From Gemmatimonadota bacterium (GTDB lineage: Bacteria > Gemmatimonadota > Gemmatimonadetes > Gemmatimonadales > GWC2-71-9), in contig JBDHJR010000022.1 of NCBI GenBank assembly GCA_039586815.1, positions 785 through 64,784 on the forward strand: DNA of 64,000 nucleotides, in the 5' to 3' direction. The notes beneath the pieces are model-generated. The model saw only the letters and a list, made by a program, of their open reading frames with translations, had not been told where the DNA came from and did no database searches. A program made the position numbers and the translations under genes. Positions 26,636 through 37,352 of the stretch are shown here, one piece after another; within the stretch, counting starts at the first letter, position 1; each line of letters opens with the position of its first letter.

Positions 26636-28558
26636 CTACTCCAACTGGGCCAGGCGCTCGCCCAACTCGCGGGCCGAGGAAAGCCGTTGTTCCGGCTGCT
26701 TGGCCAGGAGCTGCAGGATCAACCCAGACAGCGCCGGTGGGATGTCGCCGTTGACTTCGTGCGGCGCCGTCGGCTCCTCGCTCAGCATCATTGCCACGAG
26801 CGACATCGGTGACTTGGCCGCGAACGGCAGGCTTCCCGTGAGGCATTCGTAGAGCACCACGCCCACGGCGTAGAGATCGCTGCGCTCGTCCAGCGCCGAC
26901 TCGGCGAGCAGCTGCTCCGGCGACATGTACGCCGGCGTGCCTACCGACAGCCCCGTCTCGGTGATCCCCATCGTCGCCTCGCTCAGGCGGGCGATCCCGA
27001 AGTCCATCACCTTCAACACCCCGTCGGCGTCGAGCAGCAGATTCTGCGGCTTCACGTCGCGGTGGATGACTCCGACGCCGTGCGCCACCTCCAATGCCTG
27101 GGCGAGCTGGGAGGCGATCGCGAGCGCGGCCGGCACACCCAGCCGGCCGCGGCTGTCGATCAGGTGCCGCACCGTCATGCCCTCCACGTACTCCATAGTG
27201 AGGTAGTACACTCCCGACCACTCGCCGAAGTCGTGGGTGCGCACCACGTTGCGGTGGGTGATGCGGCGGGCCAACCGAATTTCCGTCTTGAAGCGCTCGA
27301 TCAGCGTCGGGTCCACGACCAGCTCGGGGCGCAGCGTCTTGATGGCGATCTCCTCGTCCAGCTCCAGGTCGCGAGCCCGGTACACTGCCCCCATCGCCCC
27401 CTGCCCGAGCGGGGTCGTGATCTGGTAGCGGTCGGCGAAGCGCTCACTGGTGGGGAGGTTGGCGTGGTCGAGCTGGCTCCCGGCCGATGACGCCCCGTCG
27501 CTTGCCGACTCGATCTCGCGGCGCAGGTCCTCTACCTGGCCCCGCAGGCGGTCCTCGCGGGCCCGTACTTCGGTGGCCATGCGGTCGAACACGCGGGCCA
27601 GGCGGCCCAGTTCGTCGTTGCGCCCCGTGGTTTCGGCCAGGTTGCCGGAGCTGTACGAGCCGGCCTCCACCGCCGACGCGGCGTCGATCACCGAGCGCAC
27701 CTGCTCCAGGTACTCCATCTCGCGGTCGCGCAGCCGCTTCTTGTCGAGCGAGGCCGTGATGCGAGCCCGCAGCAGTACCGGGTCGAAGGGCTTGGGCAGG
27801 TAGTCTTCGGCTCCGTGCTCGATGCAGCGCACCACGCTCGATAGGTCGTCCAGCGCCGAGATCATGATCACGGGAAGGTGGCGCGTCTCGGGCGATTGCT
27901 TGAGGCGCTCCAACACCTCGTAACCATCCATTTCGGGCATCATGACGTCGAGCAGGACCAGGTCGAACGACCCACCGCTGACCATCTCCAGCGCAACCCT
28001 GCCGTTCTCCGCGGACTCCACTGCGTGACCCTGCCGCCTGAGGCGGCGCTCCAGCAGCACACGGTTGTCCTCCACGTCATCCACGACGAGGATGCGCGCC
28101 TGGTCGTCCGCGGGGACCGCGGCATCATCCTCCTCCGCTGCGGCGGCTGCGGCGGGTGCGTCCGCGGCGCCCTGCGCCACGAGCTTGTCCGCCGCGCTCA
28201 GTATGCGGCGCAGGTCGGAGGTGAATTCCTCGTCCTTGCCGCCGGCCTGCAGCAGCGGGCTGAGCGCGCGTACGATGCGCTGCTGCGGCTCGGCCAGGGA
28301 CGTGTAGAGTGCCGCGACGTCGGCGCGGCTGACGGAGACGCCGCCCGAGCTGAGCGTGCCGTTGATGAGCGTGAGCACGTCGCGTGCGGCAACCAGCGTC
28401 TGCTCGAGCGCTGCCTTGCCGTCCTGATCGCCGTCGGGCGCATCCTCGAGCAGCATCTCGGCGTAACCCACGATGTGATTGACCGGTGTACGCAGCTCGT
28501 GCCGCAGCTCGGACAGCGCCTGCGGCGTGAGCGTGCCGCTCCCGCTTGGCTGGCTCAC
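26636..28558 (-). CDS. HisKA(DHp)-only domain + receiver + Hanks-type Ser/Thr protein kinase
   Basis: GTG at 28558 overlaps the upstream stop (GTGA). H-box LSELRHELRTPVNHIVGYAEML with no N/G1/F/G2 boxes after it. REC: ILVVDDVEDNR...DLVLLDVMMPEMDG...YLPKP. Kinase: GQGAMGAVY, AIKTL, HRDVKPQN, DFGIA, GTPAYMSPE. Confidence 0.85.
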   Translation of the reverse strand: MSQPSGSGTLTPQALSELRHELRTPVNHIVGYAEMLLEDAPDGDQDGKAALEQTLVAARDVLTLINGTLSSGGVSVSRADVAALYTSLAEPQQRIVRALSPLLQAGGKDEEFTSDLRRILSAADKLVAQGAADAPAAAAAAEEDDAAVPADDQARILVVDDVEDNRVLLERRLRRQGHAVESAENGRVALEMVSGGSFDLVLLDVMMPEMDGYEVLERLKQSPETRHLPVIMISALDDLSSVVRCIEHGAEDYLPKPFDPVLLRARITASLDKKRLRDREMEYLEQVRSVIDAASAVEAGSYSSGNLAETTGRNDELGRLARVFDRMATEVRAREDRLRGQVEDLRREIESASDGASSAGSQLDHANLPTSERFADRYQITTPLGQGAMGAVYRARDLELDEEIAIKTLRPELVVDPTLIERFKTEIRLARRITHRNVVRTHDFGEWSGVYYLTMEYVEGMTVRHLIDSRGRLGVPAALAIASQLAQALEVAHGVGVIHRDVKPQNLLLDADGVLKVMDFGIARLSEATMGITETGLSVGTPAYMSPEQLLAESALDERSDLYAVGVVLYECLTGSLPFAAKSPMSLVAMMLSEEPTAPHEVNGDIPPALSGLILQLLAKQPEQRLSSARELGERLAQLE

Positions 28559-34401: not shown

Positions 34402-37352
34402 ACGGCCGCCCTCGCCGCCACCAGCTCGCGCACCTCGGCCAGCAGGGTCTCGCGGTCCTTGGCCCCCTTCAGCACGATGCGCTGCACGCCGCCGTTGAGA
34501 CGCTTGCGATCCTCGTCGCTCAGGTCCTTCGACGTGATTACGAGTACCGGTATCGACTGCCACTCCGCGCGTGCGCGCAGCGCCTTGAGGAACTCGAACC
34601 CGTCCATCTCGGGCATCATCAGGTCCAGCAGGATCAGCTCGGGCCGCTGCTCTTCGACGCGCGACAGGGCGGTGCGGCCGTTCTCCGCCTCCCGCACCTC
34701 CCACCCCTCTGTCTCCACGGCGCGCCGCAGCAACGCCCGGGTGGCGGCATGGTCCTCCACCACCAGCACCGGCCGGCCGCCGTCGGCGCCGGCGTAGCGC
34801 TTGAGGATCGCTGCGAGCCGCTCCCTGTCGATCGGCTTGGTGAGGTATTCGGACGCACCCAGCGCGAACCCCAGGTTCTTCTCGTCCACGATGGTGAGCA
34901 TGATGACGGGTATCTCGGCGAGCTCGTTGTCGGCCTTGAGCGCGGTCAACACCGCCCACCCGTCCATCTGGGGCATCAGGACGTCCAGTGTGATCACGTC
35001 GGGACGGATCTCACGGGCGAGTGCGAGGCCCGCCTCGCCGCCCTCGGCGAGGTGCACGCGGAAGCCCTCCTTCTGCAGCAGGCGGCTCATGAGATTGCGC
35101 ACCGCGACGTCGTCGTCGATCACCAGCACGGTGCCGGCGCTGCCACCTCCCACCGGTGTGTCGGGCTGTTCCGGCACCGTCACAGGCTGCCCCGTAGGGG
35201 CATCGGTCGGCAGCCTGACAGTGAAGGTGGATCCCTTCCCGGACTCACTCTCCACCGTGATGTCGCCGCCCAGCATCTGGCAGAAGCGCCGACTGATGGC
35301 GAGGCCCAGCCCGGTGCCTCCGTAACGGCTCGCGGTCGTCGCCTCCGCCTGCGCGAACGCCTCGAACACCCGATTGAGCTGCTCCTCGGTCATGCCGATG
35401 CCGCTGTCCTGCACCCGGAGGACGATCGCTTCACCGTGCTCCCCGTCCCGCTCGCCGCGCGCAATCAGGGAAATGGTCCCACGCTCGGTGAACTTGCATG
35501 CGTTGGACAGCAGGTTGAGCAGCACCTGCCGGATCCGGGTTGCGTCGGAGTGCATTCGCGGTACGGGCTCATCGACTCGGAGCTCGAAGCGGTTGGCGTT
35601 CTGCTCCACCAGGGGACGGATCGTGGTGGCCACCTCGTCGAGCACGGTGTGGACGTCGAACCGCTCCAGGTACAGCTCCATCTTGCCCGCCTCGATCTTG
35701 GATAGATCGAGGATGTCGTTGATCAGGTTCAGCAGGTGGCGTCCGGAGGCGTGGATCTTCTCCAGGTCGGGGACGAAGCCGGCCTGCCCCGCGTCCTCGG
35801 CGTCCTCCTGCAGCATCTCGCTGTAGCCGATGATGGCGTTGAGCGGCGTGCGCAGCTCGTGGCTCATGTTGGCCAGGAACTGGCTCTTGGCGCTGTTGGC
35901 GTCCTCGGCCTCGCGCCGCGCCTGCAGCAGCTCGCTCACGTCGTGGTACAGACCCATGAGCCCGACCCGTTCCCCGTCTACGTCCACCGGGACCGCCAGG
36001 ACCTCCACTTCGACCAGCGAGCCGTCCTTGCGGCGCCGCTGCCCGATGCCCTTCACGGCGTGGTCGGACGCCTCCTCAGTGTAGGCCACCGCCTGGGCCC
36101 GCGTCTGCTCGGTGGTGATCAGATCGTCGAGGTTCCGCCCCAGCACTTCCCGCTCGGAGTAGCCGTACAGCGTCTCGAACGCTGGGTTGACCGAGACTAT
36201 GTGGTGGTCGGGATCCAGCGTGACGATGGCCACCGGGCTGTTGCGCACCAGCTCGGCGAAGTACTGCTTCTGCCGCCGCGCCGCCGTGTACAGCCGCGCG
36301 TTCTCGATCGCGACGGCCGCCTGGGTGGCGAACAGCTTGAGCAAGCGGTGGTCCTCGGGGCCGAACTGGCGGCCACGGTCGGAGTGCCAGAAGTCGATCA
36401 CTCCGACGAGCTGCCCCGCCACCACCAGGGGGAGCACCACGGCCGCGTGCGCGTCCACGGTGGCGTAGCGCTCCGAGCGTCCGGCCCACTCTTCGTAGTC
36501 CGTGATGATGAGAGGCTCGCGCGTCTGGGCCACGTGGCCCATCGCGCCCTCTCCCACTGCGAGTCGGGTGCCGACGGAGACCTGGTCCATCGCGTGGTTG
36601 GCCACGATCTCCAGCTCGCGCGACGCCTCGTCGTAGATGGCGAGCTCGCCCCCGCTCACCCCCAGCAGGCTTACCGCGCGCCGCAGCACGGCCTGCAGCA
36701 GCTTGGGCAGCTCGAGCTCGGCCGACAGGTCGGCCATCGTCTCCAGCAGGGCCTGCTGCTCGTCGGCGCGCCGCCGCTCGGACGCCAGGAGCTGCTGCTG
36801 GCTCTCCAGCAAGCGCGCGCGGGCGATCGCGATGGCCGCCTGGGCGGCGGCCGCCTTGAGAATGTCCTGGTCCTCAGGCGCGAACGCGTCCGGCTGCTCG
36901 CTCTCCACCACCAGCACGCCGGCGGGTTGTCCCTCGATGACGAGCGGCACGTCGATCTCCGAGCCGGTGCTGAGGCCGGGGATGTAGAGCGGCTCCTTGG
37001 TGACGTCGGGAGTGTAGTGGACCTCGCCGTCCTCGAGGGCGCGGGCGCTCAGCCCCTCACCCTTGGGGACGCGCCATCCCGCCGAGGTGTCTTCCCAGCC
37101 CACGGCGGCGCGCATCACGCGGTCGCCGGTGGGTTCGTCGACCAGGAAGAGCCCCACGAAGTAGTAGCCCAGCGCCTCGTCGCGCAGGCCGTGCACGACG
37201 CGACGGCAGATCTCGTCCTCGTCTAGTGCGGCGGCGAGCTCTGCGCTCAGCCGCAGCAGCGCCGCCTGGCGGCGGGCTAGGCTGTCGTCGGGACGACTGG
37301 ATTCGGGAGGGCACACAACCCGGACAAACTGTATCGGGAATCGCCGTACCAC
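34398..37352 (-). CDS. hybrid sensor histidine kinase, GAF-GAF-PAS-HisKA-HATPase-REC-REC
   Basis: GTG at 37352. [35 protein letters not shown]. Two receivers ([24 protein letters not shown]). Exact start uncertain. Confidence 0.85.

Follow-up and report, generated by a model that had tools for sequence, protein, structure and literature searches.

A 64,000-nucleotide stretch of a Gemmatimonadota bacterium (GenBank assembly GCA_039586815.1, contig JBDHJR010000022.1, positions 785 to 64,784 of the forward strand; hereafter the window) carries five minus-strand open reading frames (ORFs) at 26636-37352, encoding, in this order, the sensor histidine kinases HK3, HK2 and HK1, a stand-alone receiver and a protein that ends in a Hanks-type Ser/Thr kinase (the STK protein). 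This operon is, in our judgment, probably a dedicated cytoplasmic His-Asp-His-Asp phosphorelay, in which the terminal response regulator has a Hanks kinase as its output. We hold with high confidence that the kinase is controlled by its receiver and fed by the co-encoded histidine kinases; the four-step order, from the His of a histidine kinase to D51 of the lone receiver, then to H20 and finally to D204 of the STK protein, is proposed with moderate confidence. Each of the four relay stations has kept its key residues, and the genes stand in a conserved order; that this order mirrors the proposed order of transfer counts for the relay. An earlier note, made from the letters of this DNA, had read the operon as a multi-input relay funneled into a Hanks kinase. 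Our results support that reading and strengthen it by the finding that the N-terminal His module of the STK protein and the lone receiver form a portable core, which recurs with other outputs.

The operon consists of two soluble hybrid histidine kinases, HK3 (34398..37352, minus strand, as are all operon positions below; 984 aa) and HK2 (31090..34401, 1103 aa; a variably present paralog), the soluble non-hybrid kinase HK1 (28943..31093, 716 aa), the stand-alone receiver (28555..28926, 123 aa, phospho-acceptor D51) and the STK protein as the fifth gene (26636..28558, 640 aa), the domain order of which is DHp2-REC-HAMP-STK. The stop codon of HK3 overlaps the ATG start of HK2 in the sequence ATGA (34398-34401), a second ATGA (31090-31093) forms the HK2/HK1 junction, and the receiver stop overlaps the GTG start of the STK gene as GTGA (28555-28558). 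These coordinates and junctions agree with the earlier note except for the start of the receiver. The note had correctly placed a stand-alone receiver here, but its length of 124 aa and its 13-nt gap to HK1 are better replaced by 123 aa and 16 nt: because all relatives and the database copy P0292 share the 123-aa length, translation most likely begins at ATG 28926 and not at TTG 28929, and the gap to HK1 is lengthened accordingly. A convergent ornithine cyclodeaminase gene ends at 26631, 4 nt past the STK stop, and on the other side a divergent gene begins at 37469, leaving 116 nt to HK3; the unit is therefore made up of exactly these five genes. At a window G+C content of 64-74%, the third-position G+C (GC3) of 0.86-0.90 marks HK3, the receiver and the STK gene, the three frames passing the script filter, as coding. 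A promoter and terminator scan of the operon found nothing useful. Each domain that had been named in the five proteins was confirmed by Pfam, and the reported lack of transmembrane segments was upheld as well: the Kyte-Doolittle maximum over 19-residue windows was 2.1, and since the most hydrophobic of these windows are GAF beta-strands, all five proteins are predicted to be soluble. None of the five has an NCBIfam equivalog at cutoff.

The sensor kinases are paralogs of each other, 56-64% identical over their full lengths. Their domain orders (Pfam) are GAF-GAF-PAS-HisKA(H498)-HATPase_c-REC(D790)-REC(D910) in HK3, GAFx3-PAS-HisKA(H606)-HATPase_c-REC(D904)-REC(D1024) in HK2 and GAF-GAF-PAS-HisKA(H484)-HATPase_c, with no receiver, in HK1. 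With HisKA at 73-80 bits and HATPase_c at 103-107 bits, both over the full profile length, all three belong to the HisKA family, and each carries the H-box MSHELRTP, at H484, H606 and H498, respectively, in HK1, HK2 and HK3. HK2 and HK3 are hybrid kinases with two REC domains each, the key residues being kept in all four; indeed, the acidic pair, the phospho-acceptor Asp, the Ser/Thr and the Lys are kept in all six receiver domains of the operon. A phytochrome or cyanobacteriochrome role of the GAF domains was considered and set aside, the GAF-GAF-PAS order being unlike the phytochrome order PAS-GAF-PHY.

In the STK protein, Pfam finds HisKA at residues 14-69 (32.7 bits, cutoff 26.9), REC at 156-267 (104.5 bits) and Pkinase at 378-628 (173 bits), with no HATPase_c, Hpt, HTH or other output domain. 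That no HATPase_c or conventional output domain had been overlooked in this protein is thus confirmed, and NCBIfam agrees. With an intact REC placed N-terminal to a Pkinase effector, the protein has the makeup of a response regulator. Its terminal receiver (residues 155-275; 27734..28096) carries D160, D161, D204, S234 and K256, all of them invariant in an alignment of 57 orthologs (60-91% identical), and is proposed as the second Asp station (Asp2) of the relay.

The receiver is linked to the kinase by a HAMP-like helix-connector-helix followed by a coiled coil (residues 283-356; 27491..27712), a segment missed by the earlier note, which had the DHp-REC-kinase order right. The Pfam HAMP profile (PF00672) scores 23.9 bits on the STK protein, against a cutoff of 25, and a precomputed PF00672 match exists in several orthologs; the AlphaFold2 (AF2) model has helices at 260-299 and 316-353 in the receiver-kinase linker. 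Moreover, the segment is homologous to the HAMP domains (46.8 and 54.8 bits) of two Gemmatimonadota paralogs with the architecture Cache(dCache_3/sCache_3_2)-HAMP-Pkinase (L007:8678-10990 and L010:8912-11065), which are 46-48% identical to the window STK protein from the HAMP domain onward. By their architecture, these paralogs would be receptor Ser/Thr kinases organized in the manner of sensor histidine kinases or chemoreceptors. The Gemmatimonadota lineage therefore possesses a module that transmits from HAMP to a Hanks kinase, and the input to this module in the STK protein appears to be the receiver, in place of a periplasmic sensor.

The kinase domain (residues 378-628; 26675..27427) carries the GxGxxG loop together with K407, E426, HRD499-501, K503, N506 and DFG519-521, and these residues from K407 to DFG519-521 are invariant in the 57 orthologs, as expected of a Hanks-type kinase. 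The predicted domain superimposes on PknB of Mycobacterium tuberculosis with a TM-score of 0.90 at 37% identity (Foldseek). Its activation loop contains T533-E-T535, which by our own alignment would correspond to the autophosphorylated T171 and T173 of that kinase. The protein is not itself a PknB/Stk1-type PASTA kinase: NF033483 (PknB_PASTA_kin) gives 315 bits against a cutoff of 450 with the kinase domain alone matched, and the STK protein has neither a PASTA repeat (Pfam) nor a transmembrane segment. A related kinase domain, 67% identical to that of the window, is found in another Gemmatimonadota genome (CP070792.1; L013:9422-10786), where a 454-aa protein joins an N-terminal region of NapC/NirT-type multiheme cytochrome c (64 bits) to the Hanks kinase and may be a redox-sensing Ser/Thr kinase.

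The N-terminal module, called simply a DHp domain in the earlier note, has the HisKA match that this name implies; the name is incomplete, since the hairpin is duplicated internally. Repeat 1 (residues 10-70; 28349..28531) bears the H-box LRH(20)ELRTPVNHIVGYAEMLLED and the proposed second His site (His2); its H-box helix, LRH20ELRTPVNHIVGYAEMLLED, is closely like the H-boxes of HK1-3, and H20 is invariant in the 57 orthologs. Repeat 2 (residues 76-135; 28154..28333) is degenerate, reads LYT(86)SLAEPQQRIV, has lost the His and is followed by an Ala-rich linker. This second repeat (helices 3-4, ALYT86SLAEPQQRIV) aligns in register with an intact second H-box, LRHELLTPITSVIGYAEMLLED, in the database proteins P0139, P0140 and P0143, and two HisKA stretches are found by Pfam in the relative L088. 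A comparison of repeat 1 with repeat 2 by hhalign, built on 49 orthologs, gave the same register (P=1e-4). The AF2 model of residues 1-150 shows four helices (predicted local distance difference test, pLDDT, 88; predicted template-modeling score, pTM, 0.78), repeat 1 corresponding to helices 12-39 and 45-68, and residues 129-151 forming the low-confidence Ala-rich linker; the Foldseek matches of this model, none of them significant, are all single-chain up-down four-helix bundles. Together, these data support an origin of the module by internal tandem duplication, the second hairpin being apparently supplied in cis, and we read the module as a pseudo-dimeric single-chain DHp with one functional His. 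Between the H-box and REC there are about 85 residues of helices and Ala-rich linker, with no CA domain. Having no ATPase domain, the module is unable to autophosphorylate; it can accept a phosphoryl group and hand it on, or serve as a phosphatase. With proteins of the Spo0B/ChpT type it shares the DHp hairpin with a transfer His (HisKA above cutoff, H20 invariant) but not the homodimer with a CA-like alpha/beta domain, as no alpha/beta domain follows the helices. It resembles an HPt domain in its proposed role only.

The lone receiver (Pfam REC, 99.6 bits) is the most conserved component of the cassette. In a BLAST survey of 11 related loci (L002-L006, L081-L086), with ORFs taken from stop to stop independently of gene calls, its orthologs were 69-91% identical where those of the STK protein were 54-86% identical, as expected of a hub that docks several partners. 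The best 120 database clusters of the lone receiver are all at least 83% identical; near-identical Gemmatimonadota sequences saturate this list, which does not address the wider distribution. By sequence, the protein appears to be of the hybrid-kinase-receiver type, its best NCBIfam matches being the receivers of hybrid kinases (BarA, TorS and HrmK types). In hybrid kinases of the BarA/TorS type, the receiver normally hands its phosphate to an HPt domain, and the likeness to such HPt donors therefore fits a REC-to-H20 transfer step. In JGI/KEGG, orthologs of this protein are labeled "cell cycle response regulator DivK", an automatic annotation that the context here does not support. The other single-domain receiver of the window (39978-40391, minus strand, 137 aa) is only 26% identical to that of the operon; it adjoins two pseudopilin-like genes (PilX_N and N_methyl; 40557-42870, minus strand).

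The cassette is widespread in the phylum. More than 120 database clusters contain the full-length STK protein at 60-97% identity, largely from Gemmatimonadota, and almost all have the same HisKA, REC and Pkinase content. In the surveyed loci, the order HK(n)-REC-STK is kept in 10 out of 11, and the eleventh (L006) is a frameshifted assembly. The cassette reads HK981-HK716-REC123-STK in L081 (STK 86-87% identical), HK686-HK714-REC121-STK in L082 (STK 63% identical), HK718-HK713-REC96-STK in L083 and HK935-HK693-HK1083-REC123-STK in L084; in L085 and L086, at least four kinases precede REC123-STK. The number of upstream kinases thus varies from one to at least four. HK1 orthologs are 61-93% identical, and in the window, as in 7 out of 10 ordered loci, the lone receiver is immediately preceded by the closest HK1 match. 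A gene of the HK1 type directly precedes REC in L002, L003, L005 and L081-L083 and abuts the STK gene in the frameshifted L006; L084 has such a gene with an HK2-like gene between it and REC. HK3 has an ortholog in the closest relative, L081 (78% identical), from which HK2 is absent; HK2-like genes occur in L002, L084 and L085. Since the kinase number is fluid and HK2 is missing from L081, the conserved unit is HK(s)+REC+STK and the set of five genes is specific to this genome; co-conservation, which the earlier note had offered as a check, therefore holds for the order HK(n)-REC-STK and fails for the exact five-gene set. The 4-nt overlap between the REC stop and the STK start is found throughout L081-L086. 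The flanks are unrelated in L002-L005 and L081-L086 except in the near relative L081, where the downstream genes (prs, L25 and H+-pyrophosphatase) are also those of the window. Because order and overlap recur with unrelated flanks, the arrangement is not due to chance. A chance adjacency of unrelated signaling genes that form no functional unit could be argued from the abundance of kinases in high-GC soil bacteria and from other Pkinase genes near some loci, but it is effectively refuted by this synteny and by the overlapping stop and start codons.

The same relay core was also found with outputs other than a Hanks kinase. With the N-terminal 150 residues of the STK protein as query, an exhaustive phmmer search gave 218 representatives at E<=1e-10, many with 2-4 H-box stretches; the repeat spacing is about 66-75 residues, and some members retain the second His whereas others lack it. 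Their transfer-type H-box signature is L-R-H-x-L-R-T-P, as compared with M-S-H-E-L-R-T-P in true kinases. A Pfam run on the 56 longer hits found REC in 53 and the outputs HATPase_c (21), class III cyclase (13), SpoIIE/PP2C (6), Pkinase (2), HD_5 (1) and AAA_35 (1), in architectures that include HisKAx2-4-REC-cyclase, HisKAx2-REC-(HAMP/PAS)-HisKA-HATPase(-REC) and HisKAx2-REC-AAA_35; the HD-GYP and AAA outputs are known as domain architectures only, not by neighborhood. A word-indexed search with the N-terminal 133 residues returned mostly fragments at contig ends. Two candidates were discarded: P0128 (L087), a would-be free-standing DHp protein, comes from a frameshift-ridden long-read assembly, and P0250 (2340 aa, 15 stretches), a repeat-rich surface protein, matched the module spuriously.

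In all four non-STK neighborhoods examined (L088-L091), a sensor histidine kinase, a lone REC of 121-124 aa and a gene of the type DHp(n)-REC-output form a triad. The output is PP2C in L088, with an RsbW-like gene nearby, an (adenylate) cyclase in L089 and L091, and a histidine kinase in L090. The sensor kinases of these loci differ (Phosphonate-bd, Tll0287-like, dCache and hybrid), and their lone RECs are 63-74% identical to that of the window. Being alike across different inputs and outputs, the lone RECs point to a dedicated shuttle receiver that travels with the tandem-DHp-REC gene. Besides fragments of GAF/PAS kinases, the L088 locus (L088:3552-10671; ENA ERZ25039527, contig_37926) has a dual REC, a lone REC, a DHp in which both H-boxes are intact, and REC-SpoIIE(PP2C), the RsbW-like gene (HATPase_c_2) lying close by on the opposite strand. 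The gene calls of this locus seem to be disrupted by long-read frameshifts. Its DHp and REC-PP2C ORFs overlap by 29 nt in different frames, the match to REC beginning at profile position 14; we read the two as one gene broken by an assembly frameshift, two genes being the alternative. We suggest, as a plausible if still tentative generalization, that a lone REC and a DHp bundle-REC protein without a CA domain make up a portable relay adaptor able to connect any sensor kinase to any enzymatic output, be it a cyclase, PP2C, HD-GYP, AAA, Hanks kinase or second histidine kinase. The His station of this adaptor, an internally duplicated bundle with the signature L-R-H-x-L-R-T-P, would be a new class of DHp-derived single-chain histidine phosphotransferase.

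The relay would work as follows. HK1-3 would sense related intracellular ligands and autophosphorylate at H484, H606 and H498, respectively. From HK1, the phosphoryl group would be passed to D51 of the lone receiver, acting as a Spo0F-like shuttle (Asp1), while that of the hybrids HK2 and HK3 would probably go first to their own receivers. D51 would then donate to H20 on the single-chain DHp bundle, which would act like Spo0B, ChpT or HPt, and H20 to D204 of the adjacent STK receiver. Phosphorylated D204 would signal through a continuous alpha5-HAMP-coiled-coil stalk and alter the geometry of the kinase dimer, and this rearrangement would lead to autophosphorylation of T533/T535 and to Ser/Thr phosphorylation of substrates. 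The sign of regulation, taken as activation in this proposal, is something we infer, in the same way as each of the transfers.

Several observations weigh against this relay. Every transfer step is derived from architecture and synteny, and operon status itself from overlaps and conservation. The model leaves unexplained why HK2 and HK3 have two receivers apiece, and the neighborhoods examined share no gene for a substrate, an FHA protein or a phosphatase next to the cassette. As for the His station, the hhalign probability for repeat 1 against repeat 2 is only 58%, and the single-chain bundle comes from a monomer-only AF2 prediction, to which a domain-swapped dimer would be the alternative. 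Foldseek with the N-terminal model found no significant homolog (best E 0.09), and no HPt or DHp structure was among the 50 best matches listed. A PDB sequence search with the module gave only weak matches to GacS/RetS-type DHp (E about 0.01), and the module has no Pfam Hpt (PF01627) match at E<=0.01, which sets it outside the HPt family. Finally, it retains the E/DxxT motif, which supports phosphatase activity in HisKA kinases, and could therefore be a phosphatase instead of a relay station.

This last point leads to the strongest alternative, a two-step system in which the histidine kinases phosphorylate D204 directly, the DHp bundle is a phosphatase, docking or dimerization element, and the lone REC is a sink or a DivK-like modulator. 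We regard it as rather unlikely, albeit deserving serious attention. The H-E/D-x-x-T phosphatase motif is retained as HELRT, the DivK label of JGI/KEGG would suit a modulator, sink receivers are established in chemotaxis systems, and a phosphatase role has been suggested for HisKA proteins without HATPase (Galperin et al., 2018; PMC5847659). However, a sink or modulator should not rank as the best-conserved cassette gene, and such a role does not agree with the strict, translationally coupled pairing of the lone REC with its tandem-DHp-REC partner, a pairing that persists over STK, PP2C, cyclase and histidine-kinase outputs and beside unrelated sensor kinases. The invariance of H20 counts against this alternative too, as does the L-R-H-x-L-R-T-P signature, which differs from that of true kinases and marks a specialized class.

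In a less probable arrangement, the DHp of the STK protein would pack on the DHp domains of HK1-3 in a RetS/GacS-like heteromer, so that H20 is phosphorylated in trans or the kinases are inhibited. The strong similarity of the STK H-box helix to those of HK1-3 and the GacS/RetS-type DHp as best PDB sequence matches, weak as these are, would be accounted for. The internal duplication and the four-helix monomer model, however, already satisfy the packing needs of the hairpin; the module also adjoins unrelated sensor kinases (Phosphonate-bd, Tll0287-like, dCache) with differing DHp domains, and the obligatory lone REC would be left unexplained.

It is similarly improbable, perhaps slightly more so, that the system is a feedback loop in which the kinases and receivers of the operon are the main substrates of the STK protein. 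Hanks kinases that act on two-component proteins are documented, as for PknB/Stk1 on WalR, VraR and DevR (PMC12189002), and the cassette has no conserved neighbor gene for an external substrate; yet where the sister cassettes have a cyclase or PP2C output, the signal clearly goes outward. Feedback phosphorylation is compatible with the proposed phosphorelay as an added layer.

Elsewhere in the window, the gene divergent from the operon (37469-39433, plus strand) is a 654-aa ORF without a Pfam or NCBIfam match and was not found beside the cassette in the relatives examined. Four further sizeable ORFs, in a stretch of 67-73% G+C, gave no match to Pfam at E<=1e-5: 52789-56055 (plus strand, 1088 aa), 57778-59064 (plus strand, 428 aa), 46386-48077 (minus strand, 563 aa) and 43565-44470 (plus strand, 301 aa); after the first of them come a TPR protein and a Helicase_C_2 protein. 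Two long minus-strand ORFs, 11161-12885 and 12438-14396, overlap by about 450 nt and both have SPOR-domain matches; the called start of 11161-12885 may lie too far upstream, the alternative being an unusual region.

The proposed phosphorelay shares its four-step logic, with a DHp-type transferase unable to use ATP, with the Bacillus subtilis KinA-E/Spo0F/Spo0B/Spo0A and the Caulobacter CckA-ChpT-CtrA relays, and it shares with the sporulation relay of B. subtilis the feeding of a single-domain receiver by several sensor kinases. In comparison, Spo0B and ChpT are homodimers with a CA-like alpha/beta domain, whereas the present module would be a duplicated hairpin with no CA remnant, fused to the terminal receiver; moreover, the output of the sporulation and CckA-ChpT relays is a DNA-binding domain and not a Hanks kinase.

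Relays that end in Ser/Thr phosphorylation or dephosphorylation are known, RsbK-RsbY of Bacillus cereus being one. In yeast, the Sln1-Ypd1-Ssk1 relay controls the mitogen-activated protein kinase kinase kinases Ssk2/Ssk22 of the high-osmolarity glycerol (HOG) pathway. In Pseudomonas aeruginosa, the hybrid kinases PA1611, PA1976 and SagS signal through HptB to HsbR/PA3346 (REC-PP2C) and on to HsbA (PMC12189002). The present operon resembles HptB-HsbR and RsbK-RsbY in that a multi-kinase relay has a response-regulator output that would change protein Ser/Thr phosphorylation, and the sister cassette L088, with its PP2C output and RsbW-like gene, is reminiscent of the HptB pathway. Those systems, however, use a canonical HPt and a PP2C or a GHKL-type Ser kinase acting on a partner-switching antagonist, instead of a DHp-derived His station and a Hanks kinase. 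The yeast Sln1-Ypd1-Ssk1-Ssk2 relay (cited in PMC1262709) likewise exerts His-Asp-His-Asp control over a Hanks-type kinase, but there the response regulator binds and regulates a separate kinase, whereas the STK protein unites receiver and kinase in a single chain through the HAMP/coiled coil; the present operon is bacterial, and the systems are not homologous. From all these relays the operon differs in lineage as well. In view of HptB-HsbR, RsbK-RsbY and Sln1, the principle is therefore not new.

Other proteins combine the two kinds of module in different ways. Cyanobacterial HstK has an N-terminal STK, a GAF domain and a C-terminal HisKA-HATPase, with no receiver (PMC2176072); it resembles the STK protein in uniting a Hanks kinase with two-component modules in one chain and in the involvement of GAF sensors, but order and logic are reversed, since the STK protein has no HATPase_c and its kinase is the output, which sets it apart from the HstK type. 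The PknB/Stk1 receptor kinases have the closest catalytic domain in sequence and predicted structure, including the TxT activation loop; in contrast to them, the present protein lacks a transmembrane segment and PASTA repeats, and its input is a receiver instead of an extracellular sensor. A 560-aa protein of a Candidatus Obscuribacterales metagenome-assembled genome (L025:6326-8008) has REC, a partial OmpR-type winged helix (Trans_reg_C, 32.8 bits) and Pkinase, with no N-terminal DHp. This independent fusion means that REC-Hanks kinase fusions are not unique to the present family. Rare REC-protein kinase fusions are also said to be listed, with no accompanying experiments, in Galperin's response-regulator censuses and a myxobacterial kinome paper, and it is not claimed here that the bare REC-STK architecture is unlisted.

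No description of this wiring was found in the literature searched (surveys of bacterial STK architectures and recent reviews, the response-regulator censuses and the myxobacterial kinome lying outside the search), in keeping with the statement in the earlier note that no characterized system wired this way was known. Two features appear to be undescribed. The first is the use of a Hanks kinase as the end point of a relay found phylum-wide; the second is a single-chain His station of DHp origin that comes with a shuttle receiver of its own.

Signaling by two-component systems and signaling by Hanks-type kinases are commonly regarded as parallel tracks that touch only through cross-phosphorylation. 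In this operon, the link between them seems to be built into the proteins, as what looks like a complete relay ends in a receiver fused via a HAMP stalk to an active-looking kinase, an arrangement kept across an entire, poorly studied soil phylum. Being soluble, membrane-free and purifiable, the system is suited to asking how aspartyl phosphorylation switches a eukaryotic-type kinase, and to testing the duplicated DHp hairpin as a new route to an HPt-like phosphotransferase. The occurrence of the same core with varied outputs suggests a general sensor-to-enzyme wiring rule, which is relevant to synthetic signaling circuits. If the relay-adaptor reading is true, two-component signaling in Gemmatimonadota would have, in the Hanks Ser/Thr kinase, a terminal output that is widely conserved.

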